Part shown: positions 1 to 14,095 of the stretch, in pieces | Layout: every line of letters starts with the position of its first letter | How positions within the stretch are numbered: position 1 is the first letter of the stretch | DNA from: a virus | Lineage: Duplodnaviria; Heunggongvirae; Uroviricota; Caudoviricetes | Length of the DNA stretch: 14,095 nucleotides | Direction: 5' to 3' (one strand) | IMG/VR virus record: IMGVR_UViG_2695420718_000010 | Program-made: the position numbers and the translations under genes | The notes under the pieces: generated by a model | Told to the model about the DNA's origin: nothing | Databases searched by the model: none | What the model saw: the letters and a program-made list of their open reading frames with translations, nothing else

Positions 1-1884
1 GACCCGACGTCGGGACTGATGGCGATGGCGCGCCAGTTCCGTAACGTGACGGCAGAGCAGATTGCGTATGTTGCACAGCTGCAGCGTTCCGGAGACGAGG
101 CCGGGGCATTGCAGGCGGCGAACGATATCGCCACGAAAGGCTTTGATGAGCAGACCCGTCGCCTGAAAGAAAACATGGGAACACTGGAGACCTGGGCGGA
201 TAAAACAGGGAAGGCATTCAAATCGATGTGGGATGCCATTCTGGATATCGGTCGTCCTGAATCCTCAGCGGATATGCTCGCCAGTGCGCAGAAGGCATTT
301 GATGAGGCGGATAAAAAATGGCAGTGGTACCAGAGCCGGAGCCAGCGCCGGGGAAAAACCGCCTCTTTCCGGGCCAACCTTCAGGGCGCATGGAATGACC
401 GGGAAAATGCCCGTCTGGGGCTGGCAGCGGCCACGCTGCAGTCAGATATGGAAAAAGCCGGTGAACTGGCTACCAGGGACCGGGCCGAACGGGACGCATC
501 ACGGCTGAAGTATACCGGAGAGGCGCAGAAGGCGTATGAGCGTCTGCTGACGCCGCTGGAGAAATATACTAACCGGCAGGAAGAGCTGAATAAGGCCCTG
601 AAAGACGGGAAAATCCTGCAGGCGGATTACAACACGCTGATGGCGGCGGCGAAAAAGGATTATGAATCGACGCTGAAAAAGCCGAAGTCGTCAGGAGTCA
701 AAGTGTCAGCCGGTGAGCGTCAGGAAGACCAGGCGCATGCTGCCCTGCTGGCGCTTGAAACCGAGCTCCGGACGCTGGAGAAGCACAGCGGAGCGAATGA
801 GAAAATCAGCCAGCAGCGCCGGGATTTGTGGAAGGCGGAGAGTCAGTTCGCGGTACTGGAGGAGGCGGCGCAACGTCGCCAGCTGTCTGCACAGGAGAAA
901 TCCCTGCTGGCCCATGAGCAAGAGACGCTGGAGTACAAACGCCAGCTGGCTGACCTGGGTGACAAGGTTGAATACCAGAAACGGCTGAATGAGCTGGCAA
1001 ATCAGGCTGTGCGGTTTGAACAGCAGCAGAGTGCGAAGCAGGCTGCAATCAGCGCAAAAGCCCGGGGGCTGACGGACCGTCAGGCACAGCGGGAGTCGGA
1101 ATCGCAGCGCCTTCGTGACGTGTACGGTGATAATCCGGATGCGCTGGCGAAGGCCACATCTGCACTGAAGAACACCTGGTCTGCGGAGGACCAGCTTCGT
1201 GGCAGCTGGATGGCCGGGCTGAAGTCCGGCTGGGGCGAGTGGGCGGAAAGTGTGACGGACAGTTTTTCGCAGGTTAAAAGCGTGGCCACGCAGACCTTTG
1301 ACGGTATTGCACAGAATATGGCAGCGATGCTGACCGGCAGCGAACAGAGCTGGCGTGGTTTCACCCGTTCTGTGCTCTCCATGCTGACAGAGATTTTTCT
1401 GAAGCAGGCCATGGTGGGGATTGTCGGGAGTATTGGCAGCGCCATGGGTGGTGCTTTCGGTGGTGGGGCGTCTGCCTCCACGGGGACGGCCATTCAGGCT
1501 GCGGCGGCGAACTTCCATTTCGCGACCGGAGGATTTACGGGGACGGGCGGCAAATATGAGCCTGCGGGGATTGTTCATCGCGGGGAGTTTGTTTTCACGA
1601 AGGAGGCAACCAGCCGGATTGGCGTCGGCAACCTGTACCGCCTGATGCGGGGCTATGCGGAAGGTGGTTATGTGGGCGGTGCCGGAAGTCCGGCGCAGAT
1701 GCGGCGGACGGAAGGCATTAATTTTAATCAGAACAATCACGTGGTGATTCAGAACGACGGCACCAACGGACAGGCGGGGCCGCAGCTGATGAAGGCGGTG
1801 TATGACATGGCCCGCAAGGGGGCGCAGGATGAGATTCAGGCGCAGATGCGTGATGGCGGCGTATTTTCCGGAGGCAGGCGATGA
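1..1884 (+). CDS. H: Tail tape measure protein (lambda gpH-like), C-terminal part; the frame is open from base 1, so the true start lies upstream of the window
   Basis: The 621-aa frame ends ...GGKYEPAGIVHRGEFVFTKEATSRIGVGNLYRLMRGYAEGGYVGG...HVVIQNDGTNGQAGPQLMKAVYDMARKGAQDEIQAQMRDGGVFSGG, which matches the lambda gpH C-terminus as I recall it. The upstream part is Q/A/E/R/K-rich, as expected for a coiled-coil tape measure. Its stop overlaps the M start as ATGA at 1881-1884. Confidence 0.9.
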   Translation, partial: DPTSGLMAMARQFRNVTAEQIAYVAQLQRSGDEAGALQAANDIATKGFDEQTRRLKENMGTLETWADKTGKAFKSMWDAILDIGRPESSADMLASAQKAFDEADKKWQWYQSRSQRRGKTASFRANLQGAWNDRENARLGLAAATLQSDMEKAGELATRDRAERDASRLKYTGEAQKAYERLLTPLEKYTNRQEELNKALKDGKILQADYNTLMAAAKKDYESTLKKPKSSGVKVSAGERQEDQAHAALLALETELRTLEKHSGANEKISQQRRDLWKAESQFAVLEEAAQRRQLSAQEKSLLAHEQETLEYKRQLADLGDKVEYQKRLNELANQAVRFEQQQSAKQAAISAKARGLTDRQAQRESESQRLRDVYGDNPDALAKATSALKNTWSAEDQLRGSWMAGLKSGWGEWAESVTDSFSQVKSVATQTFDGIAQNMAAMLTGSEQSWRGFTRSVLSMLTEIFLKQAMVGIVGSIGSAMGGAFGGGASASTGTAIQAAAANFHFATGGFTGTGGKYEPAGIVHRGEFVFTKEATSRIGVGNLYRLMRGYAEGGYVGGAGSPAQMRRTEGINFNQNNHVVIQNDGTNGQAGPQLMKAVYDMARKGAQDEIQAQMRDGGVFSGGRR

Positions 1885-2210
1885 AAACATTTCGCTGGAA
1901 AGTGAAGCCGGATATGGAGGTGAACTCGCAGCCATCGGTGCGTGAAGTGCGTTTTGGTGACGGGTATTCGCAGCGTATGGCGGCGGGGCTGAATGCTGAC
2001 CTGAAAACATACCGTGTGACGCTTTCCGTGACCCGGGAGGAGGCCCGACATCTGGAGGCATTCCTGGCAGAGCACGGTGGCTGGAAGGCGTTTCTGTGGA
2101 CACCTCCTTATGCATACCGGCAGATAAAGGTGACCAGTGCCGCCTGGTCATCACGGGTTCGCATGCTGCGGGTTGAATTCAGTGCCGAGTTTAAGCAGGT
2201 GGTGAACTGA
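1881..2210 (+). CDS. M: Minor tail protein M (copy 1)
   Basis: 109 aa, MKTFRWKVKP...VRFGDGYSQR...HGGWKAFLWTPPY...RMLRVEFSAEFKQVVN, closely matching lambda gpM. The start overlaps the H stop (ATGA) and the stop overlaps the L start (TGATG at 2208-2212). Confidence 0.92.
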   Translation: MKTFRWKVKPDMEVNSQPSVREVRFGDGYSQRMAAGLNADLKTYRVTLSVTREEARHLEAFLAEHGGWKAFLWTPPYAYRQIKVTSAAWSSRVRMLRVEFSAEFKQVVN

Positions 2211-2908
2211 TGCAGGATATTCACGAAGAAAGTCTGAACGAGTCGGTTAAATCAGAGCAGTCACCGCGGGTGGTACTCTGGGAAATCGACCTGACGGTAC
2301 AGGGTGGTGAGCGGTATTTTTTCTGCAATGAGCTGAATGAAAAAGGGGAGGCGGTCACCTGGCAGGGGCGGCAATATCAGGCATACCCGATTGACGGCAG
2401 TGGCTTTGAGATGAACGGGAAGGGCAGCAGTGCCCGCCCGTCGCTGACGGTGTCGAATCTGTTCGGTCTGGTCACCGGAATGGCGGAGGACCTGCAGAGC
2501 CTGGTGGGGGCCACGGTGGTCCGCCGCCGGGTGTATGCCCGTTTTCTGGATGCGGTGAATTTTGTGGCGGGCAATCCGGAAGCGGACCCGGAGCAGGAGC
2601 TGAGCGACCGCTGGGTGGTGGAGCAGATGTCAGAGCTGACGGCCATGACAGCCTTGTTTGTGCTGGCAACACCGACGGAGACGGACGGAGCGCTGTTTCC
2701 TGGTCGCATCATGCTGGCGAACACCTGTATGTGGGATTACCGGGGAGATGAATGCGGGTATAACGGTCCTGCGGTGGCGGATGAGTTCGACACCCCCACC
2801 ACGGATATCCGTAAGGACAGATGCAGCAAGTGCATGCGCGGGTGTGAGATGCGCGGCATGGTGGCTAATTTTGGCGGTTTCCTTTCCATTAATAAACTTT
2901 CGCAGTAA
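2210..2908 (+). CDS. L: Minor tail protein L (copy 1); C-terminal cysteine cluster consistent with the Fe-S motif reported for lambda gpL
   Basis: 232 aa, MQDIHEESLNESVKSEQSPRVVLWEIDL... with the C-terminal motif CMWDYRGDECGY...DRCSKCMRGCEM. Translationally coupled to M. Confidence 0.92.
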   Translation: MQDIHEESLNESVKSEQSPRVVLWEIDLTVQGGERYFFCNELNEKGEAVTWQGRQYQAYPIDGSGFEMNGKGSSARPSLTVSNLFGLVTGMAEDLQSLVGATVVRRRVYARFLDAVNFVAGNPEADPEQELSDRWVVEQMSELTAMTALFVLATPTETDGALFPGRIMLANTCMWDYRGDECGYNGPAVADEFDTPTTDIRKDRCSKCMRGCEMRGMVANFGGFLSINKLSQ

Positions 2909-2913
2909 ATCCA

Positions 2914-3657
2914 ATGACACAGACAGAATCAGCGATTCTGGCGCATGCCCGGCGGTGTGTGCCTGCGGAGTCGTGCGGCTTCGTGGTGAGAACGCCGGAG
3001 GGGGAGCGGTATATCCCTTGTGTGAATATCTCTGCAGAGCCGGAGGCGTATTTTCGTATTGCACCGGAAGACTGGCTGCGGGCAGAGATGCAGGGGGAGA
3101 TTGTGGCGCTGGTCCACAGCCACCCCGGTGGTCTGCCCTGGCTGAGCGAGGCCGACCGGCGGCTGCAGATAAAAAGTGCACTGTCCTGGTGGCTGGTCTG
3201 CCGGGGGGAAATTCATAAATTCCGCTGTGTGCCACATCTGACAGGACGGCGCTTTGAGCACGGGGTGACGGACTGTTACACGCTGTTCCGGGATGCATAC
3301 CATCTGGCGGGAATTGATATGCCGGATTTTGAGCGTGAGGATGACTGGTGGCGTAACGGTCAGAACCTTTACCTGGACAATATGGCGGTCACCGGCTTTT
3401 ACCGGGTGCCCCTGTCCTCTGCACAGGCGGGCGATATCCTGCTGTGCTGCTTTGGCGCATCGGTGGCCAATCATGCCGCCATTTACTGCGGCAACGGTGA
3501 GCTGCTTCACCATCTGCCTGAACAACTGAGTAAACGGGAGAGGTATTCCGAAAAATGGCAACGACGAACGCATTCAGCCTGGCGTCACCGCCACTGGCAC
3601 GTATCTGCCTTCACGGGGATTTACAACGATTTGGCCGCCGCCTCAGCCTGTATGTGA
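2914..3657 (+). CDS. K: Tail assembly protein K (copy 1), with JAMM/MPN-like and NlpC/P60-like motifs
   Basis: 247 aa, MTQTESAILAHARRC.... A JAMM-type H-x-H-x7-S-x2-D motif is visible (HSHPGGLPWLSEAD, about nt 3115-3156), plus a candidate NlpC/P60 catalytic Cys (GVTDCYTLF) and His (NHAAIY). The exact start and the roughly 100-nt overlap with the I start were not resolved. Confidence 0.88.
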   Translation: MTQTESAILAHARRCVPAESCGFVVRTPEGERYIPCVNISAEPEAYFRIAPEDWLRAEMQGEIVALVHSHPGGLPWLSEADRRLQIKSALSWWLVCRGEIHKFRCVPHLTGRRFEHGVTDCYTLFRDAYHLAGIDMPDFEREDDWWRNGQNLYLDNMAVTGFYRVPLSSAQAGDILLCCFGASVANHAAIYCGNGELLHHLPEQLSKRERYSEKWQRRTHSAWRHRHWHVSAFTGIYNDLAAASACM

Positions 3658-4559
3658 ACACGGCAGCGGAAGCCATTCGTGCCCTGTCGATGCAGATGCC
3701 GGGATTCCGCCGTCAGATGAACGAAGGCTGGTACCAGATACGTATTCGCGGTGAGGACACGGCACCGGAGGCGGTGTACGCCCGTCTTCACGAACAGCTG
3801 GGTGAGGGAACGGTCATCCACATTGTGCCGCGACTGGCCGGGGCCGGAAAGGGTGGACTGCAGATTGTATTTTATGCCGAATCGGATGCGCAGCGTGCGG
3901 ACTGGCAGAAAGGCTTGCAGGAGGGGCTCAGTAACTGGGTGGACAATGCATCCGATTACGCCTCACAGGCAGCACAGCTTGCGACGGAGGGTATCTCAGG
4001 GATGGTGAATAACATCACGGAGATGCTGAACGGAAACAAAGTGGAATGGCGCAACTGGGCCTCATCCGTACTGCAGGAAATCTCAAAAGTCCTTATGAAT
4101 GCCGCGATTGTCAACGGGATCAAGACGGCGGCAAACGGTATGTCCGGTGCGGGAGGATTTCTTGGCAGCATTGGTGACTGGCTGGGCGGTGCGGTGGTCA
4201 ATGCAAAAGGCGGCGTGTATACCTCGGCAAACCTGAGCGCGTACAGCAACAGCATTGTGGACACGCCCACGTACTTTGCCTTTGCAAAAGGGGCCGGGCT
4301 GATGGGGGAAGCCGGACCTGAAGCCATTATGCCCCTGACCCGGGCGGCGGATGGCTCGCTGGGCGTACGCGCCGTGGGTAGTATGAACGGTAGTGCGGGT
4401 CTGGTGTATTCCCCGGTCTACCACATCGCCATTCAGAATGACGGGACTAATGGCCAGATAGGGCCGGAGGCGGCAGGCAGTCTTGTGCAGCTGATTGACC
4501 AGCGGGTGCAGGCGGTGATGCTGTCCATGCGACGTGACGGAGGAATGCTGAGTGGCTGA
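3555..4559 (+). CDS. Chimeric ORF: the N-terminal 104 aa of tail assembly protein I fused in frame to the C-terminal ~230 aa of a second, divergent tape measure protein (H')
   Basis: Nt 3555-3868 look identical to nt 7663-7976, the 5' end of the intact I gene; the two diverge at 3869 versus 7977. The downstream part (…WRNWASSVLQEISKVLMNAAIVNG…GSIGDWLGG…FAFAKGAGLMGEAGPEAIMPL…HIAIQNDGTNGQIGPEAAGSL…RRDGGMLSG) parallels the H C-terminus in this window (…WRGFTRSVLSMLTEIFLKQAMVG…GSIGSAMGG…HVVIQNDGTNGQAGPQL…MRDGGVFSGG). Its stop overlaps the M2 GTG start (GTGGCTGA), as at a native H/M junction. Confidence 0.75.
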   Translation: MATTNAFSLASPPLARICLHGDLQRFGRRLSLYVNTAAEAIRALSMQMPGFRRQMNEGWYQIRIRGEDTAPEAVYARLHEQLGEGTVIHIVPRLAGAGKGGLQIVFYAESDAQRADWQKGLQEGLSNWVDNASDYASQAAQLATEGISGMVNNITEMLNGNKVEWRNWASSVLQEISKVLMNAAIVNGIKTAANGMSGAGGFLGSIGDWLGGAVVNAKGGVYTSANLSAYSNSIVDTPTYFAFAKGAGLMGEAGPEAIMPLTRAADGSLGVRAVGSMNGSAGLVYSPVYHIAIQNDGTNGQIGPEAAGSLVQLIDQRVQAVMLSMRRDGGMLSG

Positions 4560-4893
4560 GATAAAAACGCTGCATCTGGTCCCGCGTGAAGGGATGCAGG
4601 TGAGTGAGAAGCCGTCGGTGGTGAGGGTGCGGTTTGGTGACGGTTATGAACAGCGTCGCCCCACAGGACTGAATCCTCAACTGAAGACGTTTCAGGCGGT
4701 GTTCCGGGTGACGGATGAGTCAACCCGGCGCTGGCTGGAAGAGTTTTTATCGTGGCATGGTGGTTACCGTGCCTTTTTGTGGCGACCGCCGAAACATAAC
4801 CGGACGGTGAGGGTTGTGTGCCGTGAGTGGAGTGTCACGGATAATGCCCGGTACAGTGATTTCAGTTGCACGATAGAGCAGGTGGTGAACTGA
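4552..4893 (+). CDS. M: Minor tail protein M (copy 2, divergent paralogue; GTG start)
   Basis: 113 aa, (M)AEIKTLHLVPREGMQVSEKPSVVRVRFGDGYEQR...HGGYRAFLWRPP...IEQVVN. It shares the VRFGDGY and HGG(W/Y)(K/R)AFLW(T/R)PP motifs with M1 but is clearly diverged. The stop overlaps the L2 ATG (TGATG at 4891-4895). Confidence 0.85.
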   Translation: MAEIKTLHLVPREGMQVSEKPSVVRVRFGDGYEQRRPTGLNPQLKTFQAVFRVTDESTRRWLEEFLSWHGGYRAFLWRPPKHNRTVRVVCREWSVTDNARYSDFSCTIEQVVN

Positions 4894-6336
4894 TGCAGGA
4901 TATTCACGAAGAAAGCCTGAACGAGTCGGTTAAGTCAGAGCAGTCACCGCGGGTGGTACTCTGGGAAATCGACCTGACGGTACAGGGCGGTGAGCGGTAT
5001 TTTTTCTGTAATGAGCTGAATGAAAAAGGGGAGCCGGTCACCTGGCAGGGGCGGCAATATCAGGCATACCCGATTGACGGCAGCGGTTTTGAGATGAGCG
5101 GGAAGGGCAGCAGTGCCCGCCCGTCGCTGACGGTGTCCAATCTGTTTGGTCTGGTCACCGGAATGGCGGAGGATTTGCAGAGCCTGGTGGGGGCCACGGT
5201 GGTCCGCCGCCGGGTGTATGCCCGTTTTCTGGATGCGGTGAATTTTGTGGCGGGCAATCCGGAAGCGGACCCGGAGCAGGAGCTGAGCGACCGCTGGGTG
5301 GTGGAGCAGATGTCAGAGCTGACGGCCATGACAGCCTTGTTTGTGCTGGCAACACCGACGGAGACGGACGGAGCGCTGTTTCCTGGTCGCATCATGCTGG
5401 CGAACACCTGTATGTGGGATTACCGGGGAGATGAATGCGGGTATAACGGTCCTGCGGTGGCGGATGAGTTCGACACCCCCACCACGGATATCCGTAAGGA
5501 CAGATGCAGCAAGTGCATGCGCGGGTGTGAGATGCGCGGCATGGTGGCTAATTTTGGCGGTTTCCTTTCCATTAATAAACTTTCGCAGTAAATCCAATGA
5601 CACAGACAGAATCAGCGATTCTGGCGCATGCCCGGCGGTGTGTGCCTGCGGAGTCGTGCGGCTTCGTGGTGAGAACGCCGGAGGGGGAGCGGTATATCCC
5701 TTGTGTGAATATCTCTGCAGAGCCGGAGGCGTATTTTCGTATTGCACCGGAAGACTGGCTGCGGGCAGAGATGCAGGGGGAGATTGTGGCACTGGTCCAC
5801 AGTCATCCCGGTGGTCTGCCCTGGCTGAGCGAGGCCGACCGGCGGCTGCAGATAAAAAGTGCACTGTCCTGGTGGCTGGTCTGCCGGGGGGAAATTCATA
5901 AATTCCGCTGTGTGCCACATCTGACAGGACGGCGCTTTGAGCACGGGGTGACGGACTGTTACACGCTGTTCCGGGATGCCTACCATCTGGCGGGAATTGA
6001 TATGCCGGATTTTGAGCGTGAGGATGACTGGTGGCGCAACGGTCAGAACCTTTACCTGGACAATATGGCGGTCACCGGCTTTTACCGGGTGCCCCTGTCC
6101 TCTGCACAGGCGGGCGATATCCTGCTGTGCTGCTTTGGTGCTTCGGTACCGAACCATGCCGCCATTTACTGCGGCAACGGTGAACTGCTTCACCATCTGC
6201 CTGAACAACTGAGTAAACGGGAGAGGTATTCCGAAAAATGGCAACGACGAACGCATTCTGTCTGGCGTCACCGCCACTGGCACGCATCTGCCTTCACGGG
6301 GATTTGCAACGATTTGGCCGCCGCCTCAGCCTGTAA
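4878..6336. repeat. Direct repeat copy B of the L-K unit
   Basis: Homology to copy A begins at about 4878 (GCAGGTGGTGAACTGATGCAGG, the M/L junction) and ends at the K2 terminus, where the sequence switches to the interior of L. Confidence 0.85.
4893..5591 (+). CDS. L: Minor tail protein L (copy 2)
   Basis: The protein from MQDIHEES... is near-identical to L1, with a few substitutions (for example EAVTW to EPVTW, EMNGKG to EMSGKG). The six-frame ORF begins upstream at 4866, but the homologous, translationally coupled ATG is at 4893. Confidence 0.9.
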   Translation: MQDIHEESLNESVKSEQSPRVVLWEIDLTVQGGERYFFCNELNEKGEPVTWQGRQYQAYPIDGSGFEMSGKGSSARPSLTVSNLFGLVTGMAEDLQSLVGATVVRRRVYARFLDAVNFVAGNPEADPEQELSDRWVVEQMSELTAMTALFVLATPTETDGALFPGRIMLANTCMWDYRGDECGYNGPAVADEFDTPTTDIRKDRCSKCMRGCEMRGMVANFGGFLSINKLSQ

Positions 6337-6340
6337 CTGA
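5597..6340 (+). CDS. K: Tail assembly protein K (copy 2)
   Basis: 247 aa, near-identical to K1 and K3 but with scattered differences (SVPNHAAIY, HSVWRHRHWHASAFTGICND, C-terminal ...ASACN). The JAMM HSHPGG...SEAD motif is retained. Its stop at 6338-6340 sits at the junction into L3. Confidence 0.88.
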   Translation: MTQTESAILAHARRCVPAESCGFVVRTPEGERYIPCVNISAEPEAYFRIAPEDWLRAEMQGEIVALVHSHPGGLPWLSEADRRLQIKSALSWWLVCRGEIHKFRCVPHLTGRRFEHGVTDCYTLFRDAYHLAGIDMPDFEREDDWWRNGQNLYLDNMAVTGFYRVPLSSAQAGDILLCCFGASVPNHAAIYCGNGELLHHLPEQLSKRERYSEKWQRRTHSVWRHRHWHASAFTGICNDLAAASACN

Positions 6341-7011
6341 ACGAGTCGGTTAAGTCAGAGCAGTCACCGCGGGTGGTACTCTGGGAAATCGACCTGACGG
6401 TACAGGGTGGTGAGCGGTATTTTTTCTGTAATGAGCTGAATGAAAAAGGGGAGCCGGTCACCTGGCAGGGGCGGCAATATCAGGCATACCCGATTGACGG
6501 CAGCGGTTTTGAGATGAGCGGGAAGGGCAGCAGTGCCCGCCCGTCGCTGACGGTGTCCAATCTGTTTGGTCTGGTCACCGGAATGGCGGAGGATTTGCAG
6601 AGCCTGGTGGGGGCCACGGTGGTCCGCCGCCGGGTGTATGCCCGTTTTCTGGATGCGGTGAATTTTGTGGCGGGCAATCCGGAAGCGGACCCGGAGCAGG
6701 AGCTGAGCGACCGCTGGGTGGTGGAGCAGTTATCAGAGCTGACGGCCATGACGGCCTCGTTTGTGCTGGCCACACCGACCGAGACGGACGGGGCGCTGTT
6801 TCCCGGTCGCATCATGCTGGCGAACACCTGTATGTGGACCTACCGCTCTGATGAGTGTGGTTACACGGGCGGGGCTGTGGCGGATGAGTTCGATAAACCC
6901 ACCACGGATATCCGTAAGGACAGATGCAGCAAGTGCATGCGCGGGTGTGAACTGCGCAGGAATGTCGGCAATTTTGGCGGTTTCCTTTCCATTAACAAAC
7001 TTTCGCAGTAA
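6337..7011 (+). pseudogene. L: Minor tail protein L (copy 3), 5'-truncated: lacks the first ~8 codons and the native ATG/RBS; 3' third diverged
   Basis: The frame opens right after the TAA at 6334-6336 and reads LNESVKSEQSPRVVLWEIDL..., which is L residues 9 onward. The only in-frame start candidate is the GTG at 6373. The 5' two-thirds match L2; the C-terminal region differs (CMWTYRSDECGYTGGAVADEFDKPTT...CELRRNVGNF) but keeps the cysteines. Confidence 0.7.
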
Positions 7012-7021
7012 ATCCCGGTTT

Positions 7022-7765
7022 ATGACACAGACTGAATCAGCGATTCTGGCGCATGCCCGGCGGTGTGTGCCTGCGGAGTCGTGCGGCTTCGTGGTGAGAA
7101 CGCCGGAGGGGGAGCGGTATATCCCTTGTGTGAATATCTCTGCAGAGCCGGAGGCGTATTTTCGTATTGCACCGGAAGACTGGCTGCGGGCAGAGATGCA
7201 GGGGGAGATTGTGGCGCTGGTCCACAGCCACCCCGGTGGTCTGCCCTGGCTGAGCGAGGCCGACCGGCGGCTGCAGATAAAAAGTGCACTGTCCTGGTGG
7301 CTGGTCTGCCGGGGGGAAATTCATAAATTCCGCTGTGTGCCACATCTGACAGGACGGCGCTTTGAGCACGGGGTGACGGACTGTTACACGCTGTTCCGGG
7401 ATGCATACCATCTGGCGGGAATTGATATGCCGGATTTTGAGCGTGAGGATGACTGGTGGCGTAACGGTCAGAACCTTTACCTGGACAATATGGCGGTCAC
7501 CGGCTTTTACCGGGTGCCCCTGTCCTCTGCACAGGCGGGCGATATCCTGCTGTGCTGCTTTGGCGCATCGGTGGCCAATCATGCCGCCATTTACTGCGGC
7601 AACGGTGAGCTGCTTCACCATCTGCCTGAACAACTGAGTAAACGGGAGAGGTATTCCGAAAAATGGCAACGACGAACGCATTCAGCCTGGCGTCACCGCC
7701 ACTGGCACGTATCTGCCTTCACGGGGATTTACAACGATTTGGCCGCCGCCTCAGCCTGTATGTGA
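7022..7765 (+). CDS. K: Tail assembly protein K (copy 3)
   Basis: ATG at 7022; the 247-aa protein is identical to K1. The nucleotide sequence from 7034 onward appears identical to 2926 onward. Confidence 0.9.
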   Translation: MTQTESAILAHARRCVPAESCGFVVRTPEGERYIPCVNISAEPEAYFRIAPEDWLRAEMQGEIVALVHSHPGGLPWLSEADRRLQIKSALSWWLVCRGEIHKFRCVPHLTGRRFEHGVTDCYTLFRDAYHLAGIDMPDFEREDDWWRNGQNLYLDNMAVTGFYRVPLSSAQAGDILLCCFGASVANHAAIYCGNGELLHHLPEQLSKRERYSEKWQRRTHSAWRHRHWHVSAFTGIYNDLAAASACM

Positions 7766-8343
7766 ACACGGCAGCGGAAGCCATTCGTGCCCTGTCGATG
7801 CAGATGCCGGGATTCCGCCGTCAGATGAACGAAGGCTGGTACCAGATACGTATTCGCGGTGAGGACACGGCACCGGAGGCGGTGTACGCCCGTCTTCACG
7901 AACAGCTGGGTGAGGGAACGGTCATCCACATTGTGCCGCGACTGGCCGGGGCCGGAAAGGGTGGACTGCAGATTGTGCTGGGGGCGGCAGCCATCGTGGG
8001 CTCTTTCTTCACTGCCGGGGCATCAATGGCGTTATGGGGTTCAGCCCTGGCAGCCGGTGGTTTTTCTGCCACCACGATGCTGTTTTCACTTGGAGCCAGC
8101 ATGATTCTGGGCGGTGTGGCCCAGATGCTGGCCCCGAAGGCAAAAACACCGGATTACCGCGCAACGGATAACGGCAGACAGAACACGTACTTTTCCTCGC
8201 TGGATAACATGATTGCCCAGGGGAACCCGATGCCGGTGCCTTACGGTGAAATGCTGGTTGGCTCCCGGCGAATCTCCCAGGACATCAGTACCCGTGATGA
8301 AGGCGGTGACGGGAAGGTGGTGGTTATCGGGCGGCAGGCATAA
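7663..8343 (+). CDS. I: Tail assembly protein I (intact)
   Basis: 226 aa, MATTNAFSLASPPLARICLHGDLQRFGRR...IHIVPRLAGAGKGGLQIVLGAAAIVGSFFTAGAS...MLAPKAKTP...NTYFSSLDNMIAQGN...GEMLVGSRRISQDISTRDEGGDGKVVVIGRQA, closely matching lambda gpI as I recall it (N-terminal domain plus hydrophobic Gly/Ala-rich C-terminal half). Confidence 0.92.
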   Translation: MATTNAFSLASPPLARICLHGDLQRFGRRLSLYVNTAAEAIRALSMQMPGFRRQMNEGWYQIRIRGEDTAPEAVYARLHEQLGEGTVIHIVPRLAGAGKGGLQIVLGAAAIVGSFFTAGASMALWGSALAAGGFSATTMLFSLGASMILGGVAQMLAPKAKTPDYRATDNGRQNTYFSSLDNMIAQGNPMPVPYGEMLVGSRRISQDISTRDEGGDGKVVVIGRQA

Positions 8344-8354
8344 AACATAAAAAA

Positions 8355-8386
8355 TCCCGCAGTGCTCACGGACAGGAACTGCGGGA
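8355..8386 (-). terminator. Candidate intrinsic terminator for leftward (sodC) transcription
   Basis: A 9-bp inverted repeat, TCCCGCAGT (8355-8363) and ACTGCGGGA (8378-8386), with a 14-nt loop. On the minus strand it is followed by a T-rich run (complement of AAAACATAAAAAA, 8342-8354). The loop is long, so stability is uncertain. Confidence 0.4.
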
Positions 8387-8503
8387 GAGTTACGAAGATT
8401 GAGTGTAAGGAATTATTCTTATGTCACGACAAAAACATTAACTCAGAGAGGGAGGATGTGCCGTTCTTTTCAGGGAGAAAGGATTTATCGTCCTGAGGAA
8501 TAA

Positions 8504-8527
8504 AGGTAAGGGGCCCGCCCCTTACCT
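8504..8527. terminator. GC-rich hairpin immediately downstream of the sodC stop; candidate terminator
   Basis: AGGTAAGGGG (8504-8513), loop CCCG, CCCCTTACCT (8518-8527). On the minus strand it is followed by TTTATTCC. It lies 7 nt from the sodC stop codon. Confidence 0.45.
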
Positions 8528-8533
8528 GACTGA

Positions 8534-9061
8534 TTATTGAATGATGCCGCAGGCCATTCTCGCACCACCACCGCCCAGGGGCTCCGGATGGTCATGATGG
8601 TTATCACCGCCAGCATGAAGCATGAGAGAACGCCCTTTAATCTCTTTTAATGAGTTCAGTCTCGGGGCCAGGACCGGGTAGTTCGCTTTTCCGTCATGCG
8701 TCACGAACAGCGCAGGGAGGTCGCCCAGGTGTCCATCCGGAGACCAGGGGCCAAGATGTTTGCCGGTGTTTTTCGGGTCAAAGTGACCGCCAGCCGATAA
8801 TGCTGCGACCGGTTTTCCGTCTTTCAGTGCCGGGGCGCAATTTCCTTTTTCGTGCACATGAAAACCATGAATGCCTTCAGACAGAGAGTGAAGGGCTGGT
8901 GTGAACAGCAGACCGTAGGGGGTCTCCTGAATGGTTATTTTTCCAATGCTGACTTCTTTTCCGTCAGCACTGACAAGGTTCATTGGGACTTCCTGTTCTG
9001 CTGCGTATCCGCATGATGCTGCTGTCAGCATGGCAATGGCAGCAATGATTTTACATTTCAT
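8534..9061 (-). CDS. sodC: Periplasmic Cu/Zn superoxide dismutase (prophage-borne SodC)
   Basis: 175 aa from the ATG at 9061-9059 (the supplied 344-aa ORF is over-extended at its N-terminus). It has a signal-peptide-like N-terminus ([20 protein letters not shown]) and Cu/Zn-SOD signatures ([49 protein letters not shown]). An RBS (GAGGG) lies about 6 nt upstream on the minus strand. Confidence 0.93.
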
Positions 9062-9194
9062 AAAACCCTCATTAATTCCGTTAACAGACTGAGCTTGCTG
9101 GTTACAGGGTAACAAACAGCGTTCTGATGATATCGCGCAATAGCTGTGCAATATCCTATCACTGCGATTAATAATACCAATTGAGAGGAACATT

Positions 9195-12100
9195 ATGGGT
9201 AAAGGTGGCGGCAGGGCGCACACGCCGGTTGAGGTAAAGGACAATCTTAAGTCCACGCAGATGATGAGCGTGATTGATGCCATTGGTGAAGGGCCGATTG
9301 AAGGTCCGGTGAAGGGGCTGCAGAGTATCCTGGTGAACAAAACCCCGCTGACGGACACGGACGGTAATCCTGTGATACATGGTGTGACCGCGGTCTGGCG
9401 CGCCGGGGAGCAGGAGCAGACACCACCTGAAGGCTTTGAGTCCTCCGGGGCGGAAACCGCACTGGGCGTGGAAGTGACGAAGGCAAAGCCGGTAACGCGC
9501 ACCATTACATCCGCGAACATTGACCGCCTGCGGGTCACCTTCGGGGTGCAGTCACTGTTGGAGACCACCTCAAAGGGCGACCGTAATCCCTCTTCTGTCC
9601 GACTGCTGATTCAGTTGCAGCGTAACGGTAACTGGGTGACGGAAAAGGATGTCACCATTAACGGCAAGACCACCTCACAGTACCTGGCGTCGGTGATTCT
9701 GGAGAATCTGCCTGAGCGGCCCTTTAACATCCGGATGGTCCGGGAGACAGCGGACAGCACCCCGGACCAGCTGCAGAATAAGACGCTCTGGTCGTCATAC
9801 ACCGAAATCATCGATGTGAAACAGTGCTACCCGAACACGGCGATTGTGGGGCTGCAGGTGGATGCGGAGCAGTTTGGCGGTCAGCAGATGACGGTGAACT
9901 ACCATATCCGCGGTCGCATCATCCAGGTACCGTCAAACTATGACCCGGAAAAACGCACGTACAGCGGCATCTGGGACGGCAGCCTGAAACCGGCATACAG
10001 CAACAACCCGGCCTGGTGCCTGTGGGACATGCTGACTCACCCGCGCTATGGCATGGGAAAACGTCTGGTGGCGGCGGATGTTGACAAGTGGGCGCTGTAT
10101 GCCATCGGGCAGTACTGCGACCAGACGGTCCCGGATGGTTTCGGGGGCACAGAGCCGCGGATGACCTTTAATGCGTACCTGTCACAACAGCGTAAGGCGT
10201 GGGACGTTCTCAGTGATTTCTGCTCGGCGATGCGCTGTATGCCGGTATGGAGCGGCCAGACGCTGACGTTCGTTCAGGACCGCCCGTCGGATGTGGTGTG
10301 GCCGTACACCAACAGCGATGTGGTGGTGGATGATAACGGCGTGGGGTTCCGCTACAGCTTCAGTGCCCTGAAGGACCGGCACACGGCGGTGGAGGTGAAT
10401 TACACCGACCCGCAGAACGGCTGGCAGACCTCCACGGAACTGGTGGAAGACCCGGAAGCCATACTGCGCTACGGACGCAACCTGCTGAAGATGGACGCGT
10501 TCGGCTGTACCAGCCGCGGTCAGGCCCACCGTGCCGGACTGTGGGTGATAAAGACCGGACTGCTGGAAACGCAGACGGTGGATTTCACGCTCGGGTCTCA
10601 GGGGCTGCGGCACACACCCGGTGACATCATTGAAATCTGTGATAACGACTATGCCGGGACCCTGACCGGCGGACGTGTCCTGTCCATTGATGCCGCCAGC
10701 CGCACCCTGACACTGGACCGTGAGGTGACCCTGCCGGAGACAGGTGCCGCCACGGTGAACCTGATTAACGGCAGCGGTAAGCCGGTGAGTGTGGACATCA
10801 CCGCACACCCCGCGCCGGACCGGATACAGGTCAGCACCCTGCCTGATGGTGTGGAGACATACGGTGTGTGGGGACTCTCCCTGCCGTCACTGCGTCGTCG
10901 CCTGTTCCGCTGTGTCTCCATCCGGGAAAACACGGACGGCACCTTTGCCATCACGGCGGTGCAGCACGTACCGGAAAAAGAAGCCATCGTGGATAACGGG
11001 GCCAGCTTTGAGCCGCAGTCAGGCACCCTGAACAGCGTTATTCCACCGGCAGTGCAGCACCTGACGGTGGAGGTGAGCGCGGCTGACGGTCAGTATCTGG
11101 CACAGGCGAAATGGGACACGCCGCGGGTGGTGAAGGGTGTGCGCTTCAGTCTGCGCCTGACCAGTGGAAGCGGTGAAAACAGCCGCCTGGTGACCACCGC
11201 CATCACCGCAGACACGGCGCACCGTTTCAGTGGCCTGCCGCTCGGGGAATACACCCTGACAGTCAGGGCAATTAACAGTTATGGCCAGCAGGGCGAACCG
11301 GCCACCACCACCTTCCGGATTAACGCGCCAGCAAAACCCGCCACCATTGAACTGACGCCGGGGTATTTTCAGATAACGGCGGTCCCGCGTCTTGCGGTGT
11401 ATGACCCGACGGTACAGTTTGAGTTCTGGTTTTCGGAGACAAAAATCGCAGACATATCTCAGGTGGAAACCTCTGCCCGTTATCTGGGGACCGGCAGTCA
11501 GTGGAGTGTATCCGGCCCGCACATTAAGCCCGGGAAGGATTTCTGGTTTTACGTGCGCAGCGTCAACCTGGTGGGGAAATCTGCGTTTGTGGAAGCCAGT
11601 GGCCGGGCCAGCAATGATGCAGAAGGGTATCTGGGGCTGTTTCGGGAAAAAATAGGAAAACTGCATCTGGCTCAGGGGCTGTGGGAGCTGATAGACAACA
11701 GCCAGCTTGCGGATGAGATGGCGGAGATGAAGACCACCATCACCGAAACCCGCAATGAAATCACACAGACGGTCAGTAAAACGCTGGAAGACCAGAGCGC
11801 CACCATACAGCAGATACAGCGCGTGCAGAAGGACACAAATGATGACCTTGCTGCACTTTACATGCTGAAGGTACAGAAAACAAAAAATGGCATACCCTAT
11901 GTTGCCGGTATTGGAGCGGGGATTGAGGATACTGATGGCCAGCCCCTGAGCAACATACTGCTGCTGGCTGACCGTATTGCGATGATTAACCCGGAGGACG
12001 GCAACACCACGCCGTTATTTGTGGCGCAGGGGAATCAGTTGTTCATGAACGATGTGTTCCTGAAGCGGCTGTTTGCGGTGAGTATCACCTCGTCCGGCAA

Positions 12101-12671
12101 TCCCCCGACGTTTTCCCTGACGCCGGAAGGGAAGCTGACAGCCAGGAACGCGGATATCAGCGGAGCAATTACCGCGAATACCGGCACGCTCAATAATGTC
12201 ACCATTAACGAGAACTGTGTCATCAGAGGGAAACTGTCTGCAAACCAGATTGAAGGCGACCTGGTGAAGACGGTGGGGAAAGCCTTTCCCCGGAATAACA
12301 GTTATGCCAGCGGGACGGTAACCGTCACAGTTTACGATGACCAGGGCTTCGACCGGCAGATTATCATTCCCCCGGTGCTGTTTCGCGGGACGAAACACCA
12401 GAATTTCAACAGCCCGAATCAGCAGTCGTACTGGTATTCCACCTGTAAGCTGCAGGTGCTGAAGAACGGGGTTGAGATTTTCCATGAACCGGCAACGGAT
12501 GTCAGCCGGGTGTTCTCATCGGTGATAGATATGCCGGCAGGGCGGGGTCATGTCACCCTGACGTTTAATGTGTCGTCGGCCGGTGCGAACAACTGGACGC
12601 CGACAACGTACATCAGTGATTTACTGGTTGTGGTCATGAAAAAATCCACGGCAGGGATCAGTATCAGCTGA
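9195..12671 (+). CDS. J: Host specificity / tail tip protein J (central tail fibre)
   Basis: 1158 aa, [39 protein letters not shown]...[15 protein letters not shown]...[22 protein letters not shown]...[19 protein letters not shown]...[26 protein letters not shown]...[34 protein letters not shown]...[10 protein letters not shown].... This is collinear with lambda gpJ as I recall it, with a diverged C-terminal receptor-binding region. The RBS GAGAGGAA lies 5-6 nt upstream. Confidence 0.95.
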
Positions 12672-12690
12672 CGGTTTATTAACCCGGACG

Positions 12691-12715
12691 GGCACCTCAG
12701 GAGGTGCCTTTTTTA
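12691..12715 (+). terminator. Rho-independent terminator downstream of J
   Basis: GGCACC (12691-12696), loop TCAGGA, GGTGCC (12703-12708), followed by TTTTTTA (12709-12715), 20 nt after the J stop. Confidence 0.7.
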
Positions 12716-12739
12716 TTGACTGAAAACAAAGAGGTAATC

Positions 12740-13363
12740 ATGCGGCATTTATACGCAACGATATTATTGTTTACTACCCTGCTGGCAGGAATTGCCTTTC
12801 CTGCACAGGCTGAAAGCGGACACGGTGCATTTTCCGTGGGATATGCTCAGGTTCACCCGGGCGGCGTACCGGCATTGTCCGGTACCGGTGCGCGTGCAGG
12901 TGATTTAAAAGGGATTAATGTGAAATACCGTTATGAGTTCACGGATCACCTGGGCGGCATTGTCGCGCTGAGTTATGCATCGGTGAAGAAAAGTGACACG
13001 ATGAAGACGGGTGAAAATACCTTCCATTATGAAAGCCTGCGCGGTCGTTATGTCAGTCTGATGGCCGGCCCTGTCTGGCAGCTCAGTGAGCGGGTCAGTC
13101 TCTATGGCATGGCCGGGATGGCGTACACCCGCTGGTCTGACAGTGTTCAGGATTACCGGCGTGATGAAGTGAAACCGGGGTATGTGAAGGAGACCACCAC
13201 CGCCAGTGATGGTCATACTGCGCGTCATCTGTCGCCGGCCTGGAATGCCGGGATTCAGTTCAGTCCCGTAGAGACGGTGGTTATTGACCTTGCTTATGAA
13301 GGTTCCGGCAGTGGCGACTGGCGCACTGACGGTTTCATCGTGGGTGTCGGCTATAAATTCTGA
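12740..13363 (+). CDS. lom: Lom-like outer-membrane beta-barrel protein (Ail/Lom/PagC family)
   Basis: Start taken at the ATG at 12740, with RBS GAGGT 5 nt upstream (the six-frame ORF starts at 12704). Signal peptide MRHLYATILLFTTLLAGIAFPAQA, then the mature protein, ending in the aromatic C-terminus ...GFIVGVGYKF typical of beta-barrel outer-membrane proteins. Position after J matches lambda lom. Confidence 0.9.
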   Translation: MRHLYATILLFTTLLAGIAFPAQAESGHGAFSVGYAQVHPGGVPALSGTGARAGDLKGINVKYRYEFTDHLGGIVALSYASVKKSDTMKTGENTFHYESLRGRYVSLMAGPVWQLSERVSLYGMAGMAYTRWSDSVQDYRRDEVKPGYVKETTTASDGHTARHLSPAWNAGIQFSPVETVVIDLAYEGSGSGDWRTDGFIVGVGYKF

Positions 13364-13387
13364 TTAGCCAGGTAACACAGTGTTATG

Positions 13388-13417
13388 ACAGCCCGCCGGT
13401 TCAGGCGGGCTTTTTTG
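13388..13417 (+). terminator. Rho-independent terminator downstream of lom
   Basis: GCCCGCC (13391-13397), loop GGTTCA, GGCGGGC (13404-13410), followed by TTTTTTG (13411-13417). Confidence 0.8.
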
Positions 13418-13427
13418 TGGGGTGAAT

Positions 13428-14095
13428 ATGGCAGTAAAGATTTCAGGTGTGCTGAAAGACGGCACAGGAAAACCAATACAGAACTGCACCATTCAACTGA
13501 AAGCCAGACGTAACAGCACCACGGTGGTGGTGAACACGGTGGCCTCTGAAAATCCGGATGAGGCAGGGCGTTACAGCATGGACGTCGAGTATGGTCAGTA
13601 CAGCGTCACTCTGTTGGTGGAGGGATTCCCTCCATCACATGCCGGGACCATCACCGTGTATGAAGATTCTCAACCGGGGACGCTGAATGATTTTCTCGGT
13701 GCCATGTCGGAGGATGACGTCCGGCCGGAGGCAATGCGTCGTTTTGAACTGATGGTGGAAGAAGCGGCGCGTCACGCAGAGGAGGCGAAGAAGAATGCCG
13801 GAGAGGCGGAGACATCAGCGAGGAATGCCGGCATATCAGCCAGTCAGGCAGAAGAGAGCGCTGCAAATGCTGACACTTCAGCAGGGGATGCATCGGAGTC
13901 AGCCCGGCAGGCGGCAGAAAGTGCAGCCGCTGCAAAGCAGTCAGAGGAGGCGTCCTCGTCCTCGGCCTCTGCGGCCGCTCAAAAAGCCAGTGAGTCATCA
14001 CAAAGTGCAGCAGATGCTGAATTGTCAAGAAAGACGGCAGAAAGTGCAGCCGGTAATGCAGCCAGGGATGCAACGACCGCAACAGAAAAAGCCCG
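13428..14095 (+). CDS. stf: Side tail fibre protein (lambda Stf-like), N-terminal part; continues beyond the window
   Basis: ATG at 13428; MAVKISGVLKDGTGKPIQNCTIQLKARRNSTTVVVNTVASENPDEAGRYSMDVEYGQYSVTLLVEGFPPSHAGTITVYEDSQPGTLNDFLGAMSEDDVRPEAMRRFELMVEEAARHAEEAKKNAGEAETSARNAGISASQ.... This matches the lambda Stf N-terminus as I recall it, followed by an A/E/S-rich repetitive region. No stop codon in the window. Confidence 0.88.
   Translation, partial: MAVKISGVLKDGTGKPIQNCTIQLKARRNSTTVVVNTVASENPDEAGRYSMDVEYGQYSVTLLVEGFPPSHAGTITVYEDSQPGTLNDFLGAMSEDDVRPEAMRRFELMVEEAARHAEEAKKNAGEAETSARNAGISASQAEESAANADTSAGDASESARQAAESAAAAKQSEEASSSSASAAAQKASESSQSAADAELSRKTAESAAGNAARDATTATEKA

Follow-up and report, generated by a model that had tools for sequence, protein, structure and literature searches.

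The 4.1-kb insert that lies between two identical 943-bp repeats in the window (the whole stretch of DNA analysed here, 14,095 nt) is very probably a scaffolding or gap-filling artefact in a multi-copy family of prophage repeats, rather than a rearrangement of the genome. Both joins that create the insert are N in the public record, each of the three pieces so joined is collinear with canonical lambdoid tail loci, and the junctions were absent from the other genomes and contig collections that we searched.

The source record and its two placeholder bases

The window corresponds to the entire 14,095-bp public record CYGP01000052.1, which belongs to the draft E. coli assembly GCA_001286645.1. 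Comparing the two, we found just two differing bases (3869 and 6336), where the record has N and the window has A. Ns in the record are confined to these two positions; each is single, and there are no long runs of N. The same positions are both of the non-homologous breakpoints, which had been mapped earlier and independently by self-alignment. The record is built as a scaffold from three contigs (a, b and c; Table 1), and neither join was ever sequenced. Since both joins needed by the insert are single-N placeholders, the sequence offers no evidence for the physical presence of the 4.1-kb insert.

A record from a draft assembly may be a scaffold whose joins are single Ns, which calls for caution. 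If a base is substituted for N ahead of a scan, as A was here, false junctions result, and these in turn produce false fusion ORFs (I::H), gene truncations (L3) and apparent 'recent duplications'. The lambdoid prophage tail genes of EPEC/EHEC-type E. coli, which occur in up to 25 places per genome, are a classic trap of this kind.

Table 1. Contigs, joins and repeats in the window.
Feature	Position	Strand	Content	Basis
Contig a	1-3868	+	H1 3' part to 1884, M1 1881-2210, L1 2210-2908, K1 2914-3657, I 5' part from 3654, cut at 3868	Pfam domains and prophage match
J1, scaffold gap placeholder	3869-3869	.	Record N, window A; exactly at the I-5'/H2-3' breakpoint	
Contig b	3870-6335	+	H2 3' 690 nt to 4559, M2 4552-4893, L2 4893-5591, K2 5597-6335 without its last 5 nt	Pfam and prophage match
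J2, scaffold gap placeholder	6336-6336	.	Record N, window A; at the K2-end/L3 breakpoint	
Contig c, first genes	6337-14095 (whole contig)	+	L3 without its first 24 nt, to 7011; K3 7022-7765; I 7762-8343	Gene table and Pfam
Contig c, later genes			sodC 8534-9061 (minus strand), J 9195-12671, lom 12740-13363, stf N-terminal part 13428-14095	Gene table and Pfam
Repeat copy 1	2926-3868	+	K without its first 12 nt and I 5' part; equals the 3' end of contig a	
Repeat copy 2	7034-7976	+	Inside contig c	
Apparent in-frame I::H fusion ORF	3555-4559	+	334 aa; Lambda_tail_I and Tape_meas_lam_C; reads across the N at 3869	Pfam

Repeats and gene copies within the window

The two repeat copies show no mismatch over their 943 positions, and neither end of the exact match can be extended by even one base; a perfect match of this length is far above chance expectation. 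This agrees with the initial annotation, which had described a perfect direct repeat with its copies 4108 bp apart and had remarked that the K2 between them carries multiple substitutions. We counted 16 sites at which K2 differs from K1 and K3 (97.8% identity). On the left, the repeat stops at a true difference, namely A/T at 2925 together with an indel of 5 nt in the spacer between L and K. On the right it stops where contig a does, at the last base before the record's N, and this does not mark a point of sequence divergence. Identical stretches of 615, 321 and 943 bp are held in common by contigs a, b and c. The absence of divergence had been taken as a sign of a very recent event, a conclusion that does not follow in a short-read scaffold, in which the same reads can be written twice. 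Of the three readings offered at the time, only a collapsed or duplicated assembly is supported, and neither recent duplication nor template switching is, given that the junctions are Ns and that the insert is unlike its neighbours.

Pfam confirms the gene order H-M-L-K-I...J. Domains were found in lambda order (Tape_meas_lam_C, Phage_min_tail, Phage_tail_L, Prok-JAB with NLPC_P60, Lambda_tail_I and the GpJ domains), with E-values per ORF from 1e-13 to 1e-92, and J, Lom and stf were taken from the gene table. Within this order, L-K is stacked threefold (2194-3868, 4877-6342 and 6337-7976) and is not a simple duplication. L3 is about 93% identical to L1 (about 7% of sites differ), and both lead into the same K sequence; M2 matches M1 at 72% identity over only a 96-nt alignment; and the 3' part of H2 has no detectable DNA similarity to H1. 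A lambda-like tail-tip module holds its genes in one copy each, whereas the window as written has three L genes, three K genes and two M genes, a surplus that is explained by scaffolding. The apparent I::H fusion ORF is not a real gene. An exact-protein look-up of this ORF and of K2 returned no identical protein on record, as is expected of codons that contain N in the record and would be translated as X.

Comparison with complete prophages and search for the junctions

The pieces were aligned one by one with blast to prophages A and B of E. coli Z1323HEC0108 and to strain A1. Contig a matches one prophage of Z1323HEC0108 at 99.87% identity, with 5 mismatches and no gaps, and I continues normally there. 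Contig b matches a second prophage of the same strain at 98.4% identity, 3.6 Mb from the match of contig a. The best matches in this complete genome to the outer contigs and to the middle contig fall in two different prophages, and in both of these M, L, K and I are single-copy. As a single piece, contig c is collinear with prophages from complete genomes whose tail modules are single-copy (98.0-98.5% identity). Each contig, then, follows an ordinary single-copy lambdoid tail module (H-M-L-K-I-sodC-J) that continues differently past the join.

The same genes in the same order make up the lambdoid tail-tip module H-M-L-K-I-(sodC)-J-lom-stf of EPEC/EHEC-type E. coli prophages, seen at NZ_CP148374.1 954000-969000 and in Stx-converting phages such as LC616079, where sodC is likewise on the opposite strand. 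Identity to that single-copy module is 99.9% over contig a, 98-98.5% over contig c and 99.0% over a and c merged. In every complete genome and phage record examined, M, L, K and I occur once in each module, in contrast to the three L and K genes of the window, and all 11 comparison loci have one copy each of the module genes. The initial annotation had calculated correctly that joining the two repeat copies deletes 4108 bp; what is left is a canonical H-M-L-K-I-sodC-J locus. Contigs a and c, merged through the repeat, form 9,987 nt that are collinear with a real prophage at 99.0% identity with 2 gap openings. The merged locus is probably simply the true one, rather than one of two structures that coexist in a heterogeneous population.

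Best matches in complete genomes reach 98.5% for L2 and 97.5% for L3, and the L3-K3 combination is likewise not matched above 97.5%. These low values suggest, on sequence comparison, that L2 and L3 may be paralogue chimeras. In many complete genomes, 6-18 places match these genes, with 100% identity over 150 nt in some cases. As an observation that runs against an artefact, L2 and L3 alleles with no close match could be unsampled natural mosaics rather than products of assembly.

Exact scans over J1 with the window's artefactual A are uninformative, and the J1 scans were redone with N as a wildcard. Queries of 300 nt over J1 and J2 were never covered to at least 80% in 5,426 complete E. coli genomes, and the junction patterns with the N wildcard were absent from genome, metagenome and viral contig collections. 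No microhomology was seen at J1 against the sampled parent sequences. At J2, an apparent 6-nt microhomology includes the neighbours of the placeholder, and the bases 'AC' match neither parent. We had considered J1 and J2 as real illegitimate-recombination junctions produced by two unequal crossovers (units of 2683 and 1420-1425 nt), and rejected this on account of the Ns in the record.

Graph contigs and their edge extensions tend to end at sites that are polymorphic among paralogues. Three of the four internal contig ends adjoin such a site, T/C in a sample of ten lambdoid tail modules. At the remaining end, that of contig a, the next base is not polymorphic in a small sample of I genes (10 loci), and a variant site does not explain why the contig stops there. 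The distance from the last K2-specific SNP to the end of contig b (29 nt, which would fit the default 29-nt overlap of GapFiller) was also considered as an indication of k-mer size and set aside as too weak.

Origin of the joins and competing readings

We propose that a scaffolder chained three short-read contigs head to tail and left one N per join. Scaffolding tools leave one N where the estimated gap is zero or negative. Each contig holds part of a lambdoid tail-tip module (H-M-L-K-I' in a, 'H-M-L-K in b and 'L-K-I-sodC-J-lom-stf in c), and the contigs would derive from paralogous prophages in one genome that have long identical stretches. Read pairs within these stretches could link the contigs falsely, with a negative implied gap. 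The 943-bp repeat would then be the K-I5' stretch written twice, at the end of contig a and inside contig c. The joins, together with the N-to-A substitution, would account for the tandem layout, the I::H fusion ORF, the truncation of L3 and the unusual final codon of K2.

SSPACE and GapFiller are greedy tools that can create false joins and leave N gaps, and paired reads cannot resolve repeats longer than the library fragment; in such pipelines the sequenced fragments are shorter than 1000 bp, with 300-500 as the normal target fragment size (PMC5320598). GapFiller stalls in repeats with equally supported alternatives and needs an overlap of at least 10 nt to close a gap (PMC3446322). The window resembles greedy-scaffolder misjoins (PMC5320598, PMC3446322) in its draft WGS record, in the single N per join, in paralogous pieces with long identical stretches, in the lack of a mergeable overlap at either join and in three of the four internal contig ends, which lie at sites of paralogue difference. 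We infer the software behind GCA_001286645.1, its mechanism (a greedy scaffolder or a gap filler) and the number of prophages involved. On the other side, scaffolders use read-pair evidence, so some physical linkage is possible.

The doubled K-I5' stretch could have either of two origins, a true dispersed repeat in two prophages or edge extension from the same reads during gap filling. The former is a special case of the artefact explanation: recent homologous exchange would have given two prophages an identical K-I5', and the artefact would be limited to the tandem placement. We consider its chances to fall a little short of even. Because L1 and L3 enter the same K despite their divergence, the genome should contain this K allele at least twice unless one contig is chimeric, and the many matching places in complete genomes also argue for a dispersed repeat. 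Reads reused in contig extension would explain the perfect identity equally well, however, and the low best match of L3-K3 means that contig c could itself be a paralogue chimera.

Genuine tandem duplications in phage lambda and in prophages arise by illegitimate or unequal recombination, and they resemble the window in having direct repeats that bracket an insert and can be lost by homologous recombination, as was initially pictured. On a reading of this kind, the Ns would be mere ambiguous base calls in a real contig with a recent in-vivo duplication, which fits with each N being one base and with a record without long N runs. We regard this as extremely unlikely. Each N coincides exactly with a point at which collinearity with all known tail modules is lost (I to H and K to L), and an ambiguous call at a random site would not do so twice. 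Genuine tandem duplications have a sequenced novel junction and units that are nearly identical throughout; here, by contrast, both junctions are N, only 943 bp are identical, and the units come from different phage lineages; outside the common stretches the copies are not mutual duplicates, as the H, M and L comparisons show. The same arrangement was found neither in the 5,426 complete genomes (at least 80% coverage) nor in the three contig collections. Moreover, a perfect 943-bp repeat exceeds the described library fragments and could not be placed twice by paired reads alone (PMC5320598).

Alternatively, the order of the scaffold may be physically right, with a defective prophage that truly holds tandem parts of three tail modules (H1-M1-L1-K-I' / 'H2-M2-L2-K2 / 'L3-K-I-J), brought together by two illegitimate recombinations between co-resident lambdoid phages at junctions that the assembler failed to read. 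The scaffolder did give the contigs this order and orientation, presumably by read pairs; the three pieces share one strand and follow the order of the tail module, and no linear path other than the written one includes each of them exactly once. Still, we find this very unlikely: neither junction has a read-supported base, and short reads normally run through or close adjacent junctions that are real; the two adjacencies are absent from the genomes and contig collections searched; the identical stretches of 321-943 bp that the pieces have in common readily yield false pair links; three of the four internal contig ends lie at paralogue-variant sites; and the tandem order would entail a truncated L together with an I::H fusion of no evident use. 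If true, the window would have L and K threefold in tandem from three phage lineages, with a 943-bp stretch that destabilises the locus by homologous recombination. Such a structure would be a modest curiosity of prophage decay and recombination, and not a new kind of system.

Single-N placeholders at the breaks in gene order

Open reading frames of the window were placed in the lambda tail-tip set by Pfam (see table), and their normal order is broken at two points: J1 (3868/3869), where the 5' part of I runs into the 3' part of H, and J2 (about 6336), where the end of K is followed by L from nucleotide 25 on. A draft record, CYGP01000052.1 (assembly GCA_001286645.1; 14,095 bp), spans the entire window and was the sole record returned for the exact J protein. 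Compared base by base, window and record differ at exactly two positions, 3869 and 6336, at which the record has N and the window A, and both coincide with the breakpoints mapped beforehand. Since these Ns at the breakpoints are the only differences, the record is a scaffold of three contigs (a, 1-3868; b, 3870-6335; c, 6337-14095) separated by single-N placeholders, and neither J1 nor J2 was ever sequenced. Unsequenced placeholders also account for the bases flanking J2 (AC), which match neither parent, for the lack of microhomology at J1, and for our finding no exact proteins on record for the I::H fusion ORF and K2, public versions of which would have X at the N codon. Preparation of the window seems to swap N for A, which hides scaffold gaps and makes false codons and ORFs.

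Coordinates and assignment of genes and ORFs in the window
Feature	Coordinates	Remark	Basis
H	19-1884	tape measure, C-terminal part	Pfam
M (first)	1881-2210		Pfam
L (first)	2210-2908		Pfam
K (first)	2914-3657	JAB + NlpC/P60	Pfam
I::H ORF	3555-4559	I domain, then tape-measure C-terminal domain; crosses 3869	Pfam
M (second)	4552-4893	72% identity to first M, in a 96-nt alignment only	Pfam
L (second)	4893-5591		Pfam
K (second)	5597-6340		Pfam
L (third)	6337-7011	without first 24 nt	Pfam
K (third)	7022-7765		Pfam
I	7762-8343	complete	Pfam
sodC	8534-9061	opposite (minus) strand	Pfam Sod_Cu
J	9195-12671		
lom	12740-13363		
stf	13428-14095	start only	

The sodC gene (Cu/Zn superoxide dismutase) sits like a phage 'moron' between tail genes I and J, and related complete genomes have sodC annotated at the equivalent position.

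The repeat, the insert and their counterparts in complete genomes

The initial annotation described a perfect direct repeat around a substituted middle K copy, and both statements hold: 2926-3868 and 7034-7976 are identical at 943 of 943 positions (offset 4108 bp), the match cannot be extended by even one base to left or right, and K2 differs from K1 and K3 at 16 sites. The repeat is real as text; its right end is the end of contig a, not the point at which the copies diverge. Self-alignment shows that the window holds more than a duplication, with the L-K unit written three times in overlapping copies (2194-3868, 4877-6342 and 6337-7976) of 95.6-98.0% pairwise identity; the longest exact runs common to the pieces are 943, 615 and 321 bp.

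Complete genomes of E. coli and phage records alike have the tail module only in single copy. One prophage of E. coli Z1323HEC0108 (NZ_CP148374.1), an ordinary H-M-L-K-I-sodC-J-lom-stf locus, matches both window 1-3868 (99.87%) and window 6337-14095 (98.05%), and when contigs a and c are merged via the repeat, the resulting 9,987 nt are collinear with it at 99.0% with two gap openings. The stretch 3870-6342 instead matches (98.4%) a different prophage of the same strain, 3.6 Mb away, so the insert was not copied from its neighbours; it resembles a second phage's tail module.

We conclude that the structure formed by the repeat and its insert is very probably not biological. A tandem that is real but whose two junctions could not be read is very unlikely: adjacent junctions are normally read through, it would entail a truncated L and an I::H fusion, and the adjacencies at J1 and J2 were found nowhere else, as 300-nt queries spanning them were never covered to at least 80% in 5,426 complete genomes, and searches of genome, metagenome and viral contig collections with a wildcard at the placeholder gave no match to the junction patterns. 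Reading the Ns as plain ambiguous base calls deserves almost no credence, since both fall exactly at the breaks in collinearity. Among the origins first suggested, a collapsed or duplicated assembly was the correct one; a very recent duplication, a template switch and a locus heterogeneous in the population find no support. In practice, scans of draft records should leave their Ns as they are and not turn them into bases beforehand.

Proposed origin of the joins

Contigs and edge extensions typically halt at sites that vary between paralogues. At three of the four contig ends inside the record, the adjoining base varies T/C among lambdoid modules (one after contig b, one before contig c and one before contig b); in this small sample, the end of contig a has no adjoining variable base. 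GapFiller extends by k-mers inward from each edge and needs an overlap of at least 10 nt to close a gap; most gaps that it leaves open are repeats in which the alternatives have equal support (PMC3446322). In a commonly used Illumina pipeline, a repeat that exceeds the fragment size cannot be rebuilt unambiguously, joins carry Ns, and SSPACE and GapFiller are greedy and capable of false joins (PMC5320598). We infer that a process of this type lies behind the present joins. The strain would carry several lambdoid prophages whose tail genes are closely related, the assembler would break contigs within this repeat family, read pairs in identical shared stretches would link three paralogous contigs, and the scaffolder would write them one after another. 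As L1 and L3, about 7% apart, lead into the same K sequence, either the K-I5' segment is a dispersed repeat present in two prophages, or reads of one copy served to extend the contig of the other.

The homologous prophages of the closest complete genomes carry nleB2, nleC, nleH and nleF just past the tail-fibre genes, so the source strain was probably an EPEC/EHEC-like E. coli. In two of the homologous loci, these type III effector genes, with nleC as a remnant, lie downstream of stf (L001, 48-1349; L012, 13348-16505); the window stops inside stf, short of this region.

Mosaic alleles and variation among tail modules

In a site-by-site haplotype table of the three L-K copies, copy 1 belongs to the first type over its full length. 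Copy 2 combines an L-5' haplotype common to copy 3 with an L-3' part equal to copy 1 over 615 bp and a second-type K; in copy 3, a third type of L-3' precedes the stretch identical to copy 1. The L2 (4893-5591) and L3 (6337-7011) alleles are mosaics of haplotypes found in the other copies, and could be either chimeras of paralogues produced during assembly or natural mosaics not yet sampled. Their best matches in the 5,426 complete genomes reach 98.5% and 97.5%, respectively (contig a, 99.9%). The L-K spacer is 5 nt long in copies 1 and 2 (e.g. 2909-2913) and 10 nt in copy 3 (7012-7021); both lengths are found in prophages of complete genomes (K start at 7046 or 7051 in loci L004-L011), making the indel a natural polymorphism.

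Homologous tail modules of other E. coli genomes are interrupted by insertion sequences (locus L004, 8894-11196; locus L008, 2995-4547): an IS21-family element between I and J, and an IS91-family transposase within the tape-measure region.
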